Part shown: piece by piece, positions 1 through 5,694 of the stretch
How positions within the stretch are numbered: position 1 is the stretch's first letter
Layout: the number at the start of each line of letters is the position of its first letter
Source of the DNA: a virus
Reading direction: 5' to 3' (one strand)
IMG/VR virus record: IMGVR_UViG_3300045988_151390
Span: 1-5,694 of that record
Length of the DNA stretch: 5,694 nt
Notes under the pieces: generated by a model
Databases searched by the model: none
What the model was told of the DNA's origin: nothing
The model's input: the letters and a program-made list of their open reading frames with translations, nothing else
Program-made: the position numbers and the translations under genes

Positions 1-1
1 A

Positions 2-25
2 TTTTTTTTTTTTTTTTTCTTTTTT
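2..25. repeat. Homopolymeric T17-C-T6 tract (poly-A on the minus strand) in the intergenic region between the two divergent promoters
   Basis: Counted directly from the sequence; the same tract recurs at 5577-5600. Confidence 0.9.
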
Positions 26-82
26 GCCGGCAGGCGCCACGTTTAGTCACGCGATAGCGTCTCCACCGCGTCCCCCGTCCCC

Positions 83-101
83 GCAAGGGCAAAGCCCTTG
101 C
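83..101. other. Perfect 8-bp GC-rich hairpin gcaagggc-aaa-gcccttgc in the GC-rich intergenic region; candidate origin or packaging-signal structure
   Basis: The 83-90 arm is the reverse complement of the 94-101 arm, with a 3-nt loop. The hairpin sits in a GC-rich non-coding stretch (roughly 30-190) that holds several smaller GC palindromes: acgc-gata-gcgt, gccg-tga-cggc, cggc-ggga-gccg. Confidence 0.4.
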
Positions 102-162
102 CCTTTCTAAACAGGCTGGTAGGGGCTTCCGATACGTAGTTACTGCCGTGACGGCGGGAGCC

Positions 163-197
163 GGTGGGCGTGCGTGTAATACGCCCACCTTTTTTTA
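163..197 (+). terminator. Perfect 9-bp stem (ggtgggcgt / acgcccacc, 9-nt loop) followed by T7; terminator-like or minus-strand-origin hairpin just upstream of the rep promoter
   Basis: Inverted repeat at 163-171 / 181-189 followed by tttttttactttttttt. It could insulate rep from read-through around the circle, or act as an origin hairpin on the ssDNA. Confidence 0.4.
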
Positions 198-250
198 CTT
201 TTTTTTACTTTCCTCTTGACAGCTCCTTCATATTGTGGTAACATTTAGCC
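190..250 (+). promoter_or_regulatory. Sigma70-like promoter for rep. It has upstream T-tracts (T7-ACT-T8-ACT, UP-element-like), -35 TTGACA (216-221), a 17-nt spacer ending in TGG (an extended -10 TGn), and -10 TAACAT (239-244)
   Basis: Consensus -35 with an exact 17-bp spacer. The -10 matches at 4 of 6 positions and carries an extended -10 TG. It sits about 35 nt upstream of the rep RBS. Confidence 0.5.
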
Positions 251-276
251 ATGGAAATGAAAGGTGGTTTCCTCAT

Positions 277-1413
277 ATGAAAACGGTTGTTAAACTTGAT
301 TATGCCACGTTTGCTTTTGAGCAAGGTTCGATTTCTATTTCTATAATCGAAGATGCGCTTGCTCAGTGCGATTTACATTTTTCGCAGACTTCCAACGCAA
401 GTGAGAATTCCCCATACAATTCGCCTGCGGGTCTTTTCTTTAAGCCGAATAACGGCGCGAAACAGTCTCCGCACTCTTTGCAAGTGTCCGGTCATGGTTG
501 TGAGCTTTTCCGTCCCACATTGCCGCGGCTCGCGTCACTGATGCAGGATGGTCATGAATTCGGTCACTTTTCCCGTCTTGACTTTTGCTTTGATGTTGTT
601 ATGACAAAGCAACGGTGGCGCGAGTTCTATCTGGGTGTTATTTCTGCTTCTGTTGATGAAATGAATTACCCTGAAAAAGCCCGTAAGGTTCGCAAGGTCA
701 TGTATCAGGGCTATGGCGATTCTACTACCGTCTATATCGGTCGTAGAACGTCTTCCGCGGTCTTCTGCCGCATCTATAATAAATCCCTTCAAGACCCCGA
801 AAAAAAGCTTTGTGTGGCTTCTGGTGAGTTTCTGGACTGCCCTGATGATTCCTATATCATTCGTTATGAGATGGAATTGAAATTTACTTCTCGTGTTCGT
901 TCTGGTTCTCGTTCCGTTTATGACCCGTCTCCGCTTTTCTGGTTTTACTATGAAGACCCTGAGAAGCTTTTCGCCTATCTTCGTAAAGTTTGGAATCGTT
1001 ACGGAAATGATACTCTTCTTCCCGATGGCTGGGACGATATGCAGTTCGTGACCGATATTGTAGCCCGTGGCATTCATTACACTGATGACTTTTGGCATCC
1101 CCTTAGCGATGACCTTGCTCAAAAGTTCTCCGTTTCTATCCATACCGAAGAACAAAAAATGTCTTACGTTGCTAACGTCTTCGGTCATAGGATTATTGAT
1201 ATTCTTCTTTATCGTCCTGAGTTGCTTTTCCTCGCTTGTTGTAAGTGGGAGCAGTATTATAATGAGCGTCTTTCGTTCTCCCCTCTGGAGCTTACACAGG
1301 AACTTGCGCAGTTCTCGGAATCCTCCCGCATTGCCGTTGAGGAATTTGAAGAACTTGCTGATGACCCATCTCCCTTTAGTGAAGTCGGGTTTGATGATAT
1401 ATCTTTATTCTGA
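277..1413 (+). CDS. Rolling-circle replication initiation protein of filamentous phage (gII / RstA analogue, Rep_trans-like)
   Basis: Longest ORF in its region. The ORF track begins at GTG 235, but ATG 277 (MKTVVKLDY...) is preceded by AAAGGTGG (260-267) at a 9-nt spacing. Motifs: N-terminal VKLDYATFAFE, HEFGHFSRLDFCFDV, VYIGRRTSSAVFCRIYNK and IRYEMELKF. From memory these resemble the conserved RxYNK/RxYDK and E-L-K motifs of the pT181 RepC / CTXphi RstA (Rep_trans) family. It is the first gene after the intergenic region and is followed by an SSB gene, as in inoviruses. Confidence 0.8.
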   Translation: MKTVVKLDYATFAFEQGSISISIIEDALAQCDLHFSQTSNASENSPYNSPAGLFFKPNNGAKQSPHSLQVSGHGCELFRPTLPRLASLMQDGHEFGHFSRLDFCFDVVMTKQRWREFYLGVISASVDEMNYPEKARKVRKVMYQGYGDSTTVYIGRRTSSAVFCRIYNKSLQDPEKKLCVASGEFLDCPDDSYIIRYEMELKFTSRVRSGSRSVYDPSPLFWFYYEDPEKLFAYLRKVWNRYGNDTLLPDGWDDMQFVTDIVARGIHYTDDFWHPLSDDLAQKFSVSIHTEEQKMSYVANVFGHRIIDILLYRPELLFLACCKWEQYYNERLSFSPLELTQELAQFSESSRIAVEEFEELADDPSPFSEVGFDDISLF

Positions 1414-1431
1414 TGAAAGGATGGTCGCTGT

Positions 1432-1674
1432 ATGAAAGTTACTGTAGTTGGTAAGTCCCGCCGCGCTGGTACATCTAAGCAGGGCAAAAACTATGATTTT
1501 ACTACTCTTATGGCCGAATATTCGATGCTTGCAAACGCTGACAATGATGGCGTACAGGTTGATAGAATCAATGTTGACGCTCTCATGATGCCGTATGCGC
1601 TCATTGTCGTTGGCGCTATGTATGACCTTGACTTTGACCGCAACGGATATCTCCTTGGAATTGAGGAAGTCTAA
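1432..1674 (+). CDS. ssDNA-binding protein, gene V-like (80 aa)
   Basis: SD GAAAGGATGG lies 7 nt upstream of ATG 1432, which comes 18 nt after the rep stop. Size and position match gV. The segment KSRRAGTSKQGKNYDF resembles the DNA-binding wing of M13 gVp (TTRSGVSRQGKPYSL, recalled from memory). Confidence 0.8.
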   Translation: MKVTVVGKSRRAGTSKQGKNYDFTTLMAEYSMLANADNDGVQVDRINVDALMMPYALIVVGAMYDLDFDRNGYLLGIEEV

Positions 1675-1710
1675 CTTCCTTTGTTCAAACCTAAATTTCA
1701 TTTCCTATGG

Positions 1711-1730
1711 GAGAGCTGTTCGCAGCTCTC
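1711..1730 (+). other. Perfect 8-bp hairpin gagagctg-ttcg-cagctctc with a UUCG tetraloop, 4 nt upstream of the tRNA 5' end
   Basis: Exact inverted repeat with no downstream U-tract, so it is not a classical terminator. It may be an RNA processing or stability element, or a DNA hairpin on the ssDNA form. Confidence 0.6.
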
Positions 1731-1734
1731 ACAT

Positions 1735-1808
1735 GGCGGGGTGGTGCAATGGTAGCACGTCACGCTCTGAACGTGAAACTGCTGGTTCGAATCCAGACCC
1801 CGCAACCA
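1735..1808 (+). tRNA. tRNA-Gln(CUG)-like gene with encoded CCA
   Basis: Hand-folded cloverleaf. Acceptor is 1735-1741 / 1798-1804 (6 of 7 pairs, G1·A72 mismatch). U8 is at 1742. D-stem is gtgc / gcac (1744-1747 / 1755-1758) with D-loop aatggta (A14, G18, G19, A21 present). Anticodon stem is tcacg / cgtga, with loop ctCTGaa (U33, anticodon CUG, A37). Variable region is 4 nt. T-stem is gctgg / ccaga (4 of 5 pairs) with the canonical T-loop TTCGAAT (G53, T54, T55, C56, A58, C61). Discriminator is A1805 and CCA is 1806-1808. Confidence 0.7.
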
Positions 1809-1826
1809 AACGGATTTGACCTCCGT
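1808..1826 (+). other. Small hairpin aacgga-tttgacc-tccgtt directly after the tRNA CCA; a possible tRNA 3' processing or terminator-like element. Its loop contains a TTGACC -35-like hexamer, but no good -10 follows
   Basis: 6-bp inverted repeat seen directly; only a weak T-run follows. Confidence 0.3.
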
Positions 1827-1855
1827 TATTCGATGCCGTGAAAGGTGGTGGCGAA

Positions 1856-3034
1856 GTGAATAAAAAGTGTCGATGCTTCTTTAAGCGCTTCGCCGCCCTT
1901 GTCGCGGCTCTCTTTATCTCTTTTTCTCTTCCTGTTTCGGCTCTGGCTGCTTCTGACCCGGTAGCTGATATGCCATCTTTGGATGATTTCTATAATCATC
2001 ATGGGTCTTGGTATGCTTGGCGTAGTTTTAAAATGTCAGGTATCCTTTATTATGAGTTGCTTTGCTCCCCTCTTTCTGTTTCTGGTAGTTCTTATTCGTT
2101 ACCTTATTCCGTTTCATATGCTACTAACGCATTTGATGTTTCTTATATTGCTACTGATTCTGGCTTAACATATGATTATGCTTGCGCTTTTCCTCTTCCT
2201 CTCCGTGGTGCTTCTGGTTATTGGTACGAACTACCTTCTTTCCCTATTGGTTTGAGCACAAATGCTGATACTTGTCTTGTTCGCGTTTTTTCTACTGTTG
2301 ACCAACCTTCTGGTACTTACGGCTTTTTAACTTCTTCTTTTAGTCGTTCTGACCGTCTTCTTTCTTTCGGCAATACTGTTGGTTCTTCTTCTGGTTCTTC
2401 TACTGATACTTTGGATTCGTTTATTTTTTCATCTCCCTTTTATTCCTATCCTTTTGCTATTCGTCAAACTACTTCTTCTTCCGCAAGTGGTTATGTTTTA
2501 CAGGGCGGTGATAAAGGCTTTTTTGTTCCTTTGTCTAACTATTCACGTGCCCGCTATATTGACCTTGGAAGCACCCGTTTTCTTCGTGGTACTAATTCTT
2601 TCGTTGCTTATCCGTCTGGATACACTATTCCTTCTTCTGATATTGGTTTTGTTTTTGTTCAACAACCTTCTTCTTCTCCTGTCTATTCTGCTTCTGCTTT
2701 TGATACGACCGGGTCTTTCGCTTTTTCTCTTCTTGTTCCTGCTTCTCGTCTACATGACGTTAAACTTGGCGATTGGATATCTGATTCCCCAGAGGATTTG
2801 CAAGATGCGATAACTAATCAATTCGGCATTGATTCCGGTACTCTTAAAGATTCTCAAGATAAATTTAATTCTTGGAATTCTTCTTCTTCCGTTGATTCTG
2901 ATGTTGCTTCTGGTGCTTCTGGTCTTCTTGGCGGGCTTTTTCAGAACTTAGGTACATTCTTCTTTTCTGTTTCTCTCCTTTGCTTTGGCGCTGTTATTCT
3001 TCGAATGCTCATTAGAAAGGCGGTTGACGGATGA
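1856..3034 (+). CDS. Secreted Ser/Gly/Thr-rich minor coat / adsorption protein, pIII-like, with a C-terminal membrane anchor
   Basis: ORF 1838-3034. The likely start is GTG 1856, preceded by AAAGGTGGTGG (1841-1851); the alternative is GTG 1838. A predicted signal peptide MNKKCRCFFKRFAALVAALFISFSLPVSALA / ASDP has an AxA cleavage site. Long Ser-rich low-complexity linkers are present. The C-terminus LLGGLFQNLGTFFFSVSLLCFGAVILRMLIRKAVDG is a TM helix plus a basic tail, the same architecture as Ff pIII. It is the largest structural ORF. Confidence 0.7.
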   Translation: MNKKCRCFFKRFAALVAALFISFSLPVSALAASDPVADMPSLDDFYNHHGSWYAWRSFKMSGILYYELLCSPLSVSGSSYSLPYSVSYATNAFDVSYIATDSGLTYDYACAFPLPLRGASGYWYELPSFPIGLSTNADTCLVRVFSTVDQPSGTYGFLTSSFSRSDRLLSFGNTVGSSSGSSTDTLDSFIFSSPFYSYPFAIRQTTSSSASGYVLQGGDKGFFVPLSNYSRARYIDLGSTRFLRGTNSFVAYPSGYTIPSSDIGFVFVQQPSSSPVYSASAFDTTGSFAFSLLVPASRLHDVKLGDWISDSPEDLQDAITNQFGIDSGTLKDSQDKFNSWNSSSSVDSDVASGASGLLGGLFQNLGTFFFSVSLLCFGAVILRMLIRKAVDG

Positions 3035-3162
3035 CTTTTCTTGACTTCTTCATATCAGTTTTTAACTTTTTCGGTTCTGGTGGCGCTCTCGTCATTGCCG
3101 TTGTCGTTTTCCTTGTTGGTCTCGGTATTTATAAGTTTGTAAAGGATTGGTTACCATGGTAG
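3031..3162 (+). CDS. Small hydrophobic virion/membrane protein, 43 aa (coat or minor-coat candidate)
   Basis: ATG 3031 overlaps the upstream stop (ATGA), and AAAGG (3016-3020) lies upstream. The protein is MTFLDFFISVFNFFGSGGALVIAVVVFLVGLGIYKFVKDWLPW: an acidic N-terminus, one TM helix and a basic C-terminus, like class-II (signal-less) inovirus coat proteins such as Pf3. It falls below the ORF-track size cutoff. Confidence 0.55.
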   Translation: MTFLDFFISVFNFFGSGGALVIAVVVFLVGLGIYKFVKDWLPW

Positions 3163-3323
3163 ACTTTGTTTCGACTCTCGGTGTTGTAACATCGTTTATT
3201 GCGAATGTCCTTAACCTCCCTTTTTTCGGTTTTGGTACCTTCGGCACAGTTGTTCTTATTTTTCTACTGCTTTCGCTTGTTGGCTTTGTTCTCCGTGGCC
3301 TTTGGGATGGGGGTGATAAATAA
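3156..3323 (+). CDS. Small hydrophobic membrane protein, 55 aa (minor coat, pVI/pVII/pIX-like candidate)
   Basis: ATG 3156 overlaps the previous stop (ATGGTAG). SD AAAGGA (3141-3146) is at a 9-nt spacing. The protein is MVDFVSTLGVVTSFIANVLNLPFFGFGTFGTVVLIFLLLSLVGFVLRGLWDGGDK, with two hydrophobic segments. Its stop overlaps the next start (TAATG). Confidence 0.55.
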   Translation: MVDFVSTLGVVTSFIANVLNLPFFGFGTFGTVVLIFLLLSLVGFVLRGLWDGGDK

Positions 3324-3934
3324 TGGAGGTCCCTACTATCATTAAAACTTGGGTTGATTCTGACGGTGTGACTGTCTATACCGTCCAGTATAAAGATGGT
3401 AGTACTTGTGACATGACTGTCGAGCAGTATGATTATCTCAGAGCTTCGGCTCAGGCTGTCGTTGATTTGGACGCTAAATCGTCTGCTGAATCTCAGCCGG
3501 AAGCTTCTCCTGTTCCCGCTGAGCCTTCGCAGAACATTACCGAAAGTCCCGACCTCCGCGAAGGTTATGTGCCGCAGGAAGAAGAATTACCTTTCGAAGG
3601 GAGCTTGACCGCTTATGATGACCGCGCCGCAGATTCTCCGGCTCTGTATGCTAATCTCCCAAACGTCTCTAATAGTTTCACTTCTATTATGGATTGGTTC
3701 GGAGACACGTTTTTTATCGAACGTACTGAGACGGTGCACAAGTCCGGCTATACGTCTGAAAGGTACTCCTATAACTCTTCGACTCAACTTATTCAGCTCC
3801 CTTATGCGGAAGATTCCACTACTACTTCACAAGTTCTCAACCCGCAAGCTTGTGTTTCTGCTTTGCTTGTTGTCCTTGTCTTCGTTACTACTGTTACATG
3901 GATTAAAAACGCGATTTGGGGGCGCATGAGTTGA
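3323..3934 (+). CDS. Acidic Pro/Ser/Glu-rich protein with a C-terminal TM anchor (203 aa); putative minor coat, receptor-interaction or assembly protein
   Basis: ATG 3323 has SD GGTGA 6 nt upstream. The 203-aa ORF ends ...ACVSALLVVLVFVTTVTWIKNAIWGRMS (TM helix plus basic tail). The N-terminal 150 aa are acidic and low-complexity. Codon usage is visibly GC-richer than in neighbouring genes. No family was recognised. Confidence 0.65.
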   Translation: MEVPTIIKTWVDSDGVTVYTVQYKDGSTCDMTVEQYDYLRASAQAVVDLDAKSSAESQPEASPVPAEPSQNITESPDLREGYVPQEEELPFEGSLTAYDDRAADSPALYANLPNVSNSFTSIMDWFGDTFFIERTETVHKSGYTSERYSYNSSTQLIQLPYAEDSTTTSQVLNPQACVSALLVVLVFVTTVTWIKNAIWGRMS

Positions 3935-4047
3935 TGGTATTTCTACCTTTGCAGTATTGTTTCGGCATTTTTACTGTCCCCGAGATTGGTTATTTCATTA
4001 TTTTCGCTGCTGTATTATCTATGTTGGTTCTCCTGTTGCGTCCGTGA
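3934..4047 (+). CDS. Small hydrophobic protein, 37 aa (minor coat candidate)
   Basis: ATG 3934 overlaps the upstream stop (TGATG). The protein is MVFLPLQYCFGIFTVPEIGYFIIFAAVLSMLVLLLRP. The nearest SD-like run is weak (GGGGG, 12 nt upstream), so translation probably depends on coupling. Confidence 0.4.
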   Translation: MVFLPLQYCFGIFTVPEIGYFIIFAAVLSMLVLLLRP

Positions 4048-4146
4048 CAGGTTCCAAAATATTTTTTGAAAGGATGATGCTTTCAGACTCCTACCACTTC
4101 TATCATTGGTACGTTGCTTTCTCAGGTCGGCGAATTTTTCACTCAG

Positions 4147-4275
4147 ATGATTACTTGGATGGGTCAGCTGATTGACTTTTATGAGCAGCAGCCGATTCTC
4201 CTTGTCTTCGTTATTCTGATGATTGCAAGCATCGTGCTCCGTCTTCTCCGCCGTTGGATTCCTGGCCGCTCCTAA
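4147..4275 (+). CDS. Small coat-like protein, 42 aa; major coat protein (pVIII-like) candidate
   Basis: The protein is MITWMGQLIDFYEQQPILLVFVILMIASIVLRLLRRWIPGRS: an acidic N-terminus, a single TM helix and an Arg-rich C-terminus (DNA-contact-like), the classic pVIII layout. A strong intrinsic terminator follows immediately, as after gVIII in Ff phages. No clear SD is present. The reading frame is open from 4078, so the true start could be the upstream TTG at 4114. The region overlaps the doubtful TTG-start ORF 3957-4175. Confidence 0.45.
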   Translation: MITWMGQLIDFYEQQPILLVFVILMIASIVLRLLRRWIPGRS

Positions 4276-4281
4276 AAGTGA

Positions 4282-4330
4282 GAGAAAACGCCGCCGACCA
4301 TTTTAATGGTCGGCGACGTTTTCTCGTTTT
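4282..4330 (+). terminator. Long intrinsic terminator: 20-bp stem (one C·A mismatch, loop ttta) whose GC-rich upper stem is followed by UUUUCUCGUUUU; it abuts the ATPase start codon
   Basis: Each pair of 4282-4301 versus 4306-4325 was checked by hand. The T-rich tract 4319-4330 follows the stem. The hairpin is symmetric enough to work on either strand. Confidence 0.65.
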
Positions 4331-4972
4331 ATGAAAGGATTATATGCTATGCTTTATGGTATTCTCATCTTTTGTATTTGCTGGCTTTTTGTATATATCG
4401 ATAATTATTGCAAAAACTCCTACAAATTGGAAGCTGTTGTTGGTTCAAAAGGTTCTGGCAAGTCTCTGTATATGTCTCGTGTTGCTGATAAGTGGCTTCG
4501 TTCTAATAAGGGGCTTATCTATTCTAATATGGGTATTGGTTATGAGTTAGATCCGGAATACTGGAAACAGACTTTTCTCCCTGATTCCCTTATTCTTATC
4601 GATGAAATTGGTGTTTTGCACTCTAACCGTGACTTTAAGACTATGCCCCGCGAAGCTGTCGAGTTTTTCAAGATGCAACGCAAGTATCATTTGACAATTA
4701 TTGTATCGTCTCAGACTATGGACTTTGACAAAAAGATTCGTGACCTCTGCGACCGCATTTATCTTTGCAACCGTATCGGCTGGTTTTGCCGTCTCACTCC
4801 CTATCGCTCTTGCATCGCTATGGAACATCGCCCCGAGGGAGGGCAAGAACTTGTCAATACGGTGCGCAAGGCGGGACGGGCAAGATGGTATACTATCCCT
4901 AAGTCTGTGAAGCAGGTGAGCGCCTTAGAATACGATACGGAGCAGGTTATTAGCAAGACCTCCTCTAAATAA
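4331..4972 (+). CDS. Zot / pI-like phage assembly ATPase (P-loop NTPase), short form of 213 aa with an N-terminal TM helix
   Basis: Walker A is VVGSKGSGKS, and Walker B is the hhhhDE-type motif LILIDEIG. Both are typical of the Zot N-terminal domain of inovirus pI. An N-terminal hydrophobic segment (LYGILIFCICWLFVYI) precedes the P-loop. The alternative start ATG 4349 has SD AAAGGA (4334-4339) at a 9-nt spacing. Confidence 0.85.
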   Translation: MKGLYAMLYGILIFCICWLFVYIDNYCKNSYKLEAVVGSKGSGKSLYMSRVADKWLRSNKGLIYSNMGIGYELDPEYWKQTFLPDSLILIDEIGVLHSNRDFKTMPREAVEFFKMQRKYHLTIIVSSQTMDFDKKIRDLCDRIYLCNRIGWFCRLTPYRSCIAMEHRPEGGQELVNTVRKAGRARWYTIPKSVKQVSALEYDTEQVISKTSSK

Positions 4973-4978
4973 AAACTT

Positions 4979-5015
4979 CCCCCCGTGCCCTTTAGGGTCA
5001 GGGGGGTTGTTTTTA
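4979..5015. terminator. Bidirectional intrinsic terminator between the convergent ATPase (+) and 72-aa (-) genes
   Basis: The hairpin is cccccc-gtgccc-ttta-gggtca-gggggg: 6 GC pairs, an internal loop, and a ccc/ggg stem around the ttta loop. TTGTTTTTATT follows on the plus strand, and an A-run upstream gives a U-tract on the minus strand. Confidence 0.65.
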
Positions 5016-5022
5016 TTATTCT

Positions 5023-5241
5023 TTAGCTATTTTTAAAGTAATGGTAAAGAAACTCTTCGTTATCTTTTAGAAGTCGTGCTTGGATTCTGAATCGGTGCAT
5101 ACTGCTTAGTTTCTTATCGTTAATCCATTTTTGTGCTGCGATTCTTAGAGCTTCTTTTTTGTTTTTTGCTTCGATATGGATAATCCATTCTTTATCTTCC
5201 CTTTTCTCCGTGCAAAATCTAATCTCATAATACTTATTCAT
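5023..5241 (-). CDS. Hypothetical basic 72-aa protein, second gene of the AT-rich minus-strand cassette
   Basis: Minus-strand ORF with SD AAAGGAGAA 9 nt upstream of the ATG, 17 nt downstream of the gene-1 stop. The protein is MNKYYEIRFCTEKREDKEWIIHIEAKNKKEALRIAAQKWINDKKLSSMHRFRIQARLLKDNEEFLYHYFKNS, net charge about +6. It has a faint resemblance to small HicB/UPF0150-like alpha/beta proteins, recalled from memory and not reliable. The K/E/N/I-rich composition differs from the phage core. Confidence 0.65.
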   Translation of the reverse strand: MNKYYEIRFCTEKREDKEWIIHIEAKNKKEALRIAAQKWINDKKLSSMHRFRIQARLLKDNEEFLYHYFKNS

Positions 5242-5258
5242 TTTTTTTTGTTCTCCTT

Positions 5259-5495
5259 TTAAAATCTTGTGAATGTTTTTCCGTCTTTTGTCTGTGCGAT
5301 TATCTCCCAGAAAATTTCATCGAGGTATTTTGTTGTATCCACGTAGTTGATGTCAATTCGCTTGATTATGAAGAAGTCGTAGAATTCTTCATTTTCATTG
5401 ACTGCGGTATATTTGAATGCTCTGTATTGATAGCTTTTCGTGTAGACAATTCTTTCTGTAAAGACCTTTTCAAGGAATTCTTTTTTTACTTTCAT
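5259..5495 (-). CDS. Hypothetical 78-aa protein, first gene of the AT-rich minus-strand cassette
   Basis: Minus-strand ORF with SD AAGGAGAT 8 nt upstream of the ATG (revcomp of 5501-5510). It lies about 20 nt downstream of the predicted TSS of the TTGACA/TACAAT promoter. The protein is MKVKKEFLEKVFTERIVYTKSYQYRAFKYTAVNENEEFYDFFIIKRIDINYVDTTKYLDEIFWEIIAQTKDGKTFTRF. No family was recognised. Confidence 0.65.
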   Translation of the reverse strand: MKVKKEFLEKVFTERIVYTKSYQYRAFKYTAVNENEEFYDFFIIKRIDINYVDTTKYLDEIFWEIIAQTKDGKTFTRF

Positions 5496-5524
5496 GCGCT
5501 TATCTCCTTTCCTTTTATGTCTTT

Positions 5525-5553
5525 ATTGTAGCATAGAAATTTCTATTTGTCAA
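5525..5553 (-). promoter_or_regulatory. Near-consensus sigma70 promoter on the minus strand driving the 78-aa/72-aa operon: -35 TTGACA (revcomp of 5548-5553), exact 17-nt spacer, -10 TACAAT (revcomp of 5525-5530)
   Basis: The reverse complement of 5521-5560 reads TTGACAaatagaaatttctatgcTACAATaaag. The predicted TSS is near 5518, giving a 5'UTR of about 23 nt that contains the AAGGAGAT SD. Confidence 0.6.
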
Positions 5554-5568
5554 TAGGAATTTCTATTG
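5533..5568. promoter_or_regulatory. Two tandem palindromic operator-like sites, 20 bp apart centre to centre. Site 1 ATAGAAATTTCTAT (5533-5546) is a perfect 14-bp palindrome inside the promoter spacer. Site 2 cAATAGGAATTTCTATTg (5551-5568) is an 18-bp palindrome with one mismatched pair, overlapping the -35
   Basis: Both palindromes were checked base by base. They share the half-site ATAG(A/G)AA / TTTCTAT. Their position over the -35 and spacer is typical of an autoregulating repressor operator. Confidence 0.55.
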
Positions 5569-5575
5569 CTCCATC

Positions 5576-5694
5576 ATTTTTTTTTTTTTTTTTCTTTTTT
5601 GCCGGCAGGCGCCACGTTTAGTCACGCGATAGCGTCTCCACCGCGTCCCCCGTCCCCGCAAGGGCAAAGCCCTTGCCCTTTCTAAACAGGCTGG
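5576..5694. repeat. Terminal redundancy copy 2, identical to 1-119 (circular wrap-around)
   Basis: Exact match to the first 119 nt of the window. Confidence 0.9.

Follow-up and report, generated by a model that had tools for sequence, protein, structure and literature searches.

A polymorphic antisense slot in a clade of gut inoviruses probably carries an accessory operon of independent small genes

Why does a small filamentous phage carry two short genes that run against all of its other genes? The question is raised by IMG/VR virus record IMGVR_UViG_3300045988_151390, positions 1 to 5,694 of which are referred to here as the window. The first 119 bases of the window are identical to its last 119, indicating that it represents a 5,575-bp circular inovirus genome. 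The only long minus-strand open reading frames (ORFs) with start signals lie at 5495..5259 (orfA, 78 aa) and 5241..5023 (orfB, 72 aa). This cassette is located between the gene of a Zot-like assembly ATPase and the replication gene (rep), antisense to every core gene. An initial annotation, which placed the two small genes correctly, considered them a candidate repressor, immunity or toxin-antitoxin (TA) module. Here we argue that the block is probably an accessory operon of independent cargo genes and not a TA or repressor pair. Its elements, and those that border it, are the following:

5019..5600, minus strand: inserted accessory block, consisting of a promoter platform, orfA, orfB and an A/T tract; missing from close relatives
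5259..5495, minus strand: orfA, encoding a near-neutral protein of 78 aa; the constant gene of the module
5023..5241, minus strand: orfB, encoding a basic cargo protein of 72 aa
5525..5553, minus strand: predicted sigma-70-type promoter with TTGACA (5553-5548), a 17-nt spacer, TG (5533-5532) and TACAAT (5530-5525)
5533..5546, inside the promoter spacer: 14-bp palindrome O1, ATAGAAATTTCTAT, candidate operator
5553..5566, abutting the -35 element: 14-bp palindrome O2, ATAGGAATTTCTAT, candidate operator, 20 bp from O1
5502..5509, minus strand: ribosome-binding site (RBS) of orfA, AAGGAGAT, read from the sequence and nearly invariant in 28 distinct relatives
5251..5259, minus strand: RBS of orfB, AAAGGAGAA, overlapping the orfA stop codon; conserved cargo-exchange junction
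4968..5017: predicted terminator hairpin common to the cassette and the Zot-like gene; the stem is GC-rich, with an A-run on one side and a T-run on the other
5577..5600: T-tract on the plus strand, read on the minus strand as an A-tract preceding the promoter; right-hand boundary of the insertion
5601..5694 (= window 26-119, extending to ~190): GC-rich hairpin region just upstream of the cassette promoter

Related genomes and loci, designated here by L numbers, reveal how the block varies. In the 4.9-kb relatives L002, L003 and L004, window position ~5014-5018 joins 5615 (=40) within ~17 nt. For a census of the slot, relatives were picked by their Zot-like protein, i.e., independently of orfA, and the slot was anchored on both sides (n=33). 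It is empty (21-171 nt) in 22 of these genomes, contains orfA alone in eight and orfA together with another gene in three. Genomes with a diverged right-hand anchor carry either a lone 76-aa gene (L071, L080, L090) or orfA alone (L096), and in MT135296 the slot is occupied by an unrelated minus-strand pair of 61 and 68 aa. The two ORFs of the latter genome (L001, MT135296.1, 3449-3846, minus strand) are acidic, have no family matches and are unannotated in GenBank.

Morons, as described in lambdoid phages, are accessory genes that lie between core genes and are equipped with a separate promoter and terminator. The block has a predicted promoter and terminator of its own, apart from the core transcription units, and close relatives differ by its presence or absence at one site, where its composition deviates. 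The early view of the cassette as an acquired moron is therefore supported by the clean join in the 4.9-kb relatives, the 22/33 empty slots and the low GC content. Absence from most relatives, antisense orientation and low GC are not properties of core inovirus genes. Accordingly, the outcome that the initial annotation had set against its own proposal, namely, conserved core genes with matching composition in relatives, did not materialize. The comparison with rep-proximal genes of related inoviruses that it had called for uncovered a variable accessory slot, not a core set.

Both orfA and orfB are real genes that were acquired from elsewhere. The former has more than 300 homologue clusters, and its conservation by codon position (0.95/0.95/0.85 in 28 distinct sequences) displays the pattern of a coding gene. 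The frame of orfB is intact in three diverged copies, with weak constraint. GC content is 0.323 in 5019-5575 versus 0.441 in the rest of the genome. Among segments of 557 nt, the minimum (0.314) is found at 5010, with a mean of 0.429 and a standard deviation of 0.033, and the block is essentially the lowest of the genome. The bias of plus-strand genes towards T-ending codons, noticed from the outset, is confirmed by T3 values of 0.37-0.64. The T fraction of the plus strand is still 0.46 through the cassette, the antisense genes of which are A3-rich (0.40-0.43). Thus, the block that was described as compositionally foreign is foreign in GC content, yet not in strand bias, because the T-richness of the plus strand continues through it. 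The orfA product is near neutral (pI 7.9), and that of orfB, as had been claimed, is basic (pI 9.6, charge +5.8).

Do the two genes belong together? A second census covered 46 loci chosen for carrying orfA. About two thirds of them have orfA alone; the others have a small gene behind it that belongs to one of seven families with no relationship to each other, and the orfB of the window is a singleton among the cargo genes in this position. The junction TAA-AAGGAGAA is kept before unrelated cargo genes in L005, L006, L007 and L008. Only three clusters of orfB were found among 5.8 billion proteins, one of them being an identical copy in a second sample. Two diverged orfB homologues (L057, L058) occupy this slot in genomes where both orfA and the AT-rich promoter are missing from it. 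A GC-rich, strongly structured leader of ~75 nt (z -5.9; 'platform 2') stands before them, and the same leader is located upstream of the unrelated 76-aa gene in L071, L080 and L090. The slot thus runs with two alternative front ends and interchangeable cargo, which is hard to reconcile with an obligate pair. Obligate co-inheritance, the hallmark of type II TA modules, is not observed, since orfA mostly occurs alone and orfB-like genes exist without it in L057 and L058. The idea of a functional two-gene unit, either a TA pair or a repressor with a partner, is not supported on the same grounds: each gene is found without the other, and at least seven unrelated partners follow orfA.

The 'platform 2' leader, AAAGGTA..CAAGCGAAGCGAGCGAGCGGCGACGCCGCTCG.CGCTCCGCAAATTTTGAGTACGGGAGGAC, was located at 1480-1553 in L057 and at 100-176 in L058, as well as in L071, L080 and L090; it stands before two unrelated cargo genes in all cases where orfA and its promoter are lacking. 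It has no Rfam match and no recognizable sigma-70 promoter. In the genomes with this leader, a C-rich repeat, CGTCCCC (GGGGGAC on the other strand), grows from the ~2 copies of the window (66-84) to approximately nine tandem copies (L057 ~1310-1390; L071); beside origin-like hairpins, it could form a G-quadruplex or an i-motif. A common origin of the cargo families through a shared beta-beta-helix 'KEAL' motif was considered and rejected, with hhalign probabilities of <=2%.

How would such a slot be expressed? The cassette promoter ranks first of 13 promoter-like sites in the window (11/12, extended -10), bearing out the near-consensus sigma-70 promoter that was proposed from the sequence alone. 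Over 28 sequences, conservation reaches 0.994 in the -35 and 0.982 in the -10 element, and the same promoter type is found upstream of homologues in microviruses L014, L016 and L030. The claim that the cassette carries the strongest Shine-Dalgarno sites of the window also stood up, AAGGAGAT and AAAGGAGAA being fuller and stronger than the AAAGG-type sites of plus-strand genes. O1 and O2 are the sole matches of the window to ATAGAANNNNCTAT (0.41 expected by chance; none of 200 shuffles reached the observed count), and the rest of the phage, with the rep promoter (216-244) and its surroundings, is free of this motif. Among relatives, the outer bases of O1 (ATAGAA/CTAT) are conserved and its center varies. 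The overlap of these inverted repeats with a strong promoter is a feature of acr-aca operons. On single-stranded DNA, O1 pairs with O2 (dG -10.9 kcal/mol, z -6.9). A single-stranded (Frpo-like) promoter at the cassette was nevertheless rejected, as the O1/O2 hairpin leaves the -35 element in the loop and the -10 element outside the stem.

The terminator is an inverted repeat (I1) with 24-nt arms that are 79% complementary, and in relatives it recurs behind orfA or the cargo gene. It had been called bidirectional. The symmetric hairpin between convergent genes agrees with this, and its symmetry suggests that it acts on the minus strand too; a simple scan, by contrast, flagged terminator-like sites (4987-5007) on the plus strand only. 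At the other edge, the tract at 5577..5600 is possibly an UP-like element; its length and sequence vary among relatives (conservation 0.80). The adjacent hairpin region folds as DNA with -36.6 kcal/mol (z -3.0). It is kept in relatives without the cassette, and L008/L009, an inovirus with a different backbone, received it together with the promoter and orfA. Judging from its position, it is presumably an origin or packaging region.

The distribution of orfA extends beyond this inovirus clade. An exhaustive profile search against 1.84 billion cluster representatives yielded no more than 17 hits, including relatives of 56-88 aa that share F-x3-V, T-x2-Y-x-Y, KRI, DTT and W motifs. The inovirus L008/L009 has a different backbone, with a Rep_OBD replication protein, a gp8-type coat protein and a helix-turn-helix (HTH) regulator, and shares with the window only ~450 bp, which comprise orfA, its promoter and the adjacent GC-rich hairpins. 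In the Microviridae contigs L014 and L016, an orfA homologue lies beside Phage_ORF5 genes on the other strand. In OP549876 (L030), a complete Microvirus genome from a human vaginal sample, the homologue runs opposite to each of the five annotated genes and has a promoter of the same type. This unannotated 69-aa gene (OP549876.1, 2551-2757, minus strand) is placed immediately upstream of rep, with the pilot-protein gene on its other side, and comes with a predicted promoter and terminator of its own. Finally, two ~16-kb phi29-like podoviruses (DNA_pol_B_2, Podovirus_Gp16, holin) encode a homologue as the first gene at one genome end. In one podovirus, L028, where the orfA homologue is 33% identical, a gene at 328-615 (plus strand) between the promoter and the orfA-like gene passes the Pfam threshold for AcrIC5 (31 bits vs 27). 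The AcrIC5-like protein has no match among Protein Data Bank (PDB) sequences, and L027, the sister contig of L028, lacks the gene.

The GC content of orfA is 8-12 points below that of each single-stranded DNA (ssDNA) phage backbone and equal to that of the ~30% GC podovirus, which points to a low-GC phage gene pool as its source. Outside these phages, orfA patterns have no copy in 185,579 species genomes, and neither orfA nor orfB has a relative in 72,556 reference plasmids. Among 50,697 phage records, orfB is absent and orfA is present solely in OP549876. Pattern scans of viral contigs for divergent orfA subfamilies retrieved nothing new, and no description of the family was found in the literature, where the nearest opposite-strand case is a homing endonuclease in another inovirus. 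Thus, orfA is an undescribed family that is spread over Inoviridae, Microviridae and phi29-like podoviruses.

Two loci place phage sequences of this clade next to foreign DNA. On the 11.7-kb ENA scaffold L005, a whole phage copy (2585-8102) is permuted and broken inside rep (window ~1095-1108, 14-nt overlap); with HSP20 and SLH-domain genes on its flanks, it could be an integrated copy or an assembly chimera. In L007, a phage fragment (1-1051 on) that comprises the hairpins, orfA, a cargo gene and the Zot C-terminus borders on RepA_N, TnpV and ParB genes and a complete type I-C CRISPR-Cas locus. The contig could be chimeric or result from insertion into a plasmid-like element. It was rejected as an independent plasmid context for orfA, the phage fragment beside the plasmid-like DNA being from the same clade.

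What kinds of proteins are encoded? The structure of the orfA product was predicted with a pLDDT of 87 as an N-terminal helix packed on a five-stranded sheet, and that of orfB with a pLDDT of 79 as a beta-beta-alpha-beta-alpha fold. Neither family scans nor these models contain an HTH, a ribbon-helix-helix (RHH) or a toxin-type fold or family, in agreement with the early remark that no HTH is recognizable in either protein. When orfA, orfB and eight other slot proteins were compared with Pfam, PHROGs, NCBIfam and PADLOC (the latter models defense systems, not anti-defense proteins), no family exceeded its threshold. The only matches, all below threshold, were to DpnD-PcfM, DUF7661, DUF3658 and phrog_35213. 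A DpnD/PcfM-like identity (PF14207) was rejected, as orfB scores 13.1 bits (E 0.097) and a 58-aa cargo family 14.9 bits against a gathering threshold of 25. Profile searches against PDB sequences gave nothing significant; the match of orfB to the 'Antitoxin' chain 8yxv_B is weak and non-significant (E 0.25). Small alpha/beta modules, i.e., ribosomal eL20/LX and PurS and, more weakly, T7 Gp2 and AcrIE2, resemble the fold of orfB only. With 6-18% identity and no family-level match, this fold is generic and gives no functional indication. Hence, the expectation that both proteins lie outside described families has held in profile and structure searches alike. The same searches identified no toxin family or fold (RelE/ParE, MazF, HicA, PIN, Doc, others), no antitoxin DNA-binding domain (HTH, RHH, AbrB) in either model, and, by Pfam or predicted structure, no HTH or RHH of an Aca regulator in orfA. 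Known Acr families have no match in the window.

We propose that 5019-5600 is a self-contained, horizontally acquired moron operon, placed between the Zot terminator and the GC-rich hairpins upstream of rep. In this model, an expression platform (A-tract, extended -10 promoter with two palindromes, strong RBS) is fused to the constant orfA, behind which lies a cargo position that orfB occupies in the genome of the window. After the incoming single strand is made double-stranded, host RNA polymerase would produce a short bicistronic mRNA that runs from 5525 as far as the shared terminator. Its two products would act separately and in trans on the host cell or its defenses, and not on replication or lysogeny of the phage. 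As to function, we tentatively favor counter-defense or host takeover, to which the hypervariable small cargo, the early or terminal position in podoviruses and the AcrIC5-like neighbor point. Microviridae and phi29-like podoviruses are mostly lytic. The presence of the family in such phages, together with the lack of a DNA-binding fold, of an operator elsewhere and of the block itself in most relatives, disfavors regulation internal to the phage.

Several observations weigh against this proposal. The two well-placed promoter palindromes look operator-like, suggesting that some regulator, possibly orfA itself, acts at the promoter. The hint of anti-defense comes from a single locus, L028, around a homologue of 33% identity. 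Because orfB is rare and weakly constrained, with 7 synonymous versus 13 non-synonymous codon changes, it could be decaying cargo. L005, if it is an integrated copy, may reopen the question of lysogeny. In addition, a search for the host with a 39-nt piece of the tRNA-Gln gene of the phage found no exact match in the 185,579 species genomes.

Which other explanations could account for the locus? The strongest rival holds that orfA is an Aca-like autoregulator, which would bind O1/O2 and damp the operon, the variable neighbors being the real effectors. Aca proteins that bind inverted repeats in Acr promoters have been described (PMC6765145, PMC13551039), and the two 14-bp palindromes of the promoter, with their spacing of 20 bp and conserved outer bases, conform to this scheme, as does the combination of a constant small gene with variable ones. 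In L028, the promoter, the AcrIC5-like gene and the orfA-like gene follow each other as in acr-aca operons, and the ATAGAA motif beside the -10 element recurs with the orfA family in three phage types. We still consider this role unlikely. The orfA product is near neutral and has neither an HTH nor an RHH fold, and orfA would regulate only itself in most carrier genomes, where it is the sole gene of the operon. Furthermore, the palindromes are lost in the microvirus homologues L014 and L016, and cargo genes without orfA have a different leader. Quite improbable is a role of orfA, and possibly orfB, in superinfection exclusion, that is, in blocking entry or replication of competing phages in the chronically infected cell. 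The block is accessory and variable, with strong predicted expression, and inovirus genes that exclude unrelated phages have been demonstrated experimentally (PMC6813254). Such a role sits poorly with the occurrence of the orfA family in Microviridae and phi29-like podoviruses. Long-term exclusion would be of little benefit to these phages given their mostly lytic lifestyle, and no membrane segment or signal peptide is visible in the sequences.

Both regulatory proposals that the locus suggested initially fare worse still. CTXphi and Pf phages keep divergent regulators next to rep (RstR; Pf4 repressor/excisionase), and the cassette does hold the same position, a comparison drawn from general knowledge. 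A controller of lysogeny or immunity of this kind, repressing rep, would fit the divergent placement between morphogenesis genes and rep, the palindromes in the promoter and L005 as a possible integrated copy. It would also be expected to have an HTH and operators at the rep promoter. Neither protein has the former, and ATAGAANNNNCTAT is confined to the cassette promoter, with no copy at 216-244 or elsewhere in the phage. Moreover, the block is missing in two thirds of clade members, no copy exists in 185,579 genomes, and the family recurs in other, mostly lytic, phage types, so that lysogeny control is very improbable. A type II TA or abortive-infection module would be consistent with two small genes with overlapping signals, a palindromic promoter and a basic second protein, and the non-significant profile match of orfB to 8yxv_B could be read in the same way. 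This identity is strongly disfavored: the genes are not co-inherited, partners are interchangeable among at least seven unrelated families, and Pfam, NCBIfam and PADLOC contain no toxin or antitoxin family for them, just as the models lack HTH and RHH folds.

The proposed accessory operon could be viewed in a broader context. In a speculative extension to which we assign only a small chance, the slot would be the ssDNA-phage counterpart of the anti-defense leading region of conjugative plasmids, and the orfA family a new class of inhibitors. Since the cargo is always antisense, the packaged T-rich strand itself would be the template. As complementary-strand synthesis proceeds, the cargo would come immediately after the origin hairpins, and this placement would make it the first DNA to become transcribable, or would even allow transcription from hairpin promoters in the 'platform 2' leader. 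New counter-defense proteins could thereby be in place by the time the replicative form is exposed. Inoviridae, Microviridae and phi29-like phages all replicate through single-stranded intermediates, so that a host activity dangerous to these intermediates is a possible target.

The remainder of the genome is coded on the plus strand and contains the following features:

277-1413, plus strand: Rep_trans-type replication gene (rep)
plus strand: 80-aa gene with weak matches to single-strand-binding proteins
1735-1808, plus strand: tRNA-Gln(CTG) (ARAGORN; Rfam 53.4 bits), flanked by the 80-aa and 398-aa genes
1838-3034, plus strand: 398-aa ORF
plus strand: several small membrane-type proteins, in addition to the 398-aa protein
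4331-4972, plus strand: stand-alone Zot-like assembly ATPase

The nearest deposited records are four 'Inovirus sp.' genomes from pig (MT135292, MT135293, MT135296 and MT135305; 4.9-5.5 kb), which are 83-87% identical to the window over parts of the genome, and the clade also includes many contigs of 4.9-5.7 kb from the human gut. A stand-alone Zot domain has been reported to be typical of gut inoviruses predicted to infect Firmicutes (PMC8530359). None of the ten window proteins scanned against Pfam and PHROGs matches an integrase family. The true starts of the Zot-like ORF and the 398-aa ORF are probably internal. In the former, the PHROG match begins at residue 7, an ATG at 4349 follows GAAAGGA, and the relatives are 207 aa long; in the latter, the PHROG match begins at residue 28. 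Seven genomes (L020, L024, L026, L040, L041, L049 and L052) have Zot-like proteins of 95-97% identity without a detectable homologue of the window rep, and the rep of L031 and L055 is only ~40% identical to it. The loss or divergence of rep beside such similar Zot-like proteins shows that the replication module was swapped on an otherwise conserved backbone.

The tRNA is the sole Rfam match in the window. Each of the 24 clade genomes checked has it, some in the form of a 69-nt variant; the other inovirus (L008) and microvirus L030 lack it. The gene is 98.7% identical to its copy in L004, the flanks being ~76-85% identical. To our knowledge, a conserved tRNA is unusual in a 5-kb filamentous phage.

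Given the tiny genomes of abundant gut inoviruses and microviruses, any retained non-core gene should pay its way. One gut inovirus clade is now seen to have a defined cargo slot, in which interchangeable small genes stand behind either of two leaders. If the cargo consists of counter-defense or host-takeover factors, the slot would be a compact, easily cloned source of new inhibitors and could show how ssDNA phages cope with bacterial immunity. If, on the other hand, orfA is a regulator, its DNA-binding fold would be new to anti-defense operons. In either case, experimental effort need not be spent on the TA and lysogeny-repressor readings, which can be set aside.

Among known systems, the cassette resembles CTXphi RstR and the Pf4 repressor/excisionase in lying next to rep on the opposite strand; it differs from the two repressors in having no HTH, no rep-promoter operator and no clear sign of lysogeny, and in being missing from most clade members. 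With the type II TA pairs borne by inoviruses (PMC6813254), it shares two small adjacent genes in an accessory position, and it departs from them in that orfA and orfB are not co-inherited and have no TA families or folds. The similarity to acr-aca operons (PMC6765145, PMC13551039) is closer, including a strong promoter with two inverted repeats, conserved and variable small genes, and a distant orfA homologue directly downstream of an AcrIC5-family gene. By contrast, every described Aca has an HTH or RHH, which orfA lacks; orfA is the first and not the last gene and usually stands alone, and neither it nor orfB matches an Acr family. In plasmid leading regions, anti-defense genes are expressed early from single-stranded promoters (PMC11541004). 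Like those genes, the slot genes use the entering strand as a template, adjoin origin-like hairpins, and are small and variable with strong predicted expression signals; unlike the leading-region promoters, the palindrome hairpin of the window rebuilds no duplex -35/-10. Morons of lambdoid phages, finally, share with the block a predicted promoter and terminator of its own, a deviant composition, presence or absence at a fixed site, and dispensability for the core life cycle. What sets the slot apart from lambdoid morons is its residence in a 5-kb ssDNA phage, with every cargo gene running against the core genes; cargo swaps take place at a conserved stop/RBS junction behind a constant leader gene, and other genomes place the same cargo genes behind a second, GC-rich leader. 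The block is thus an antisense, modular cargo-slot variant of the phage moron.

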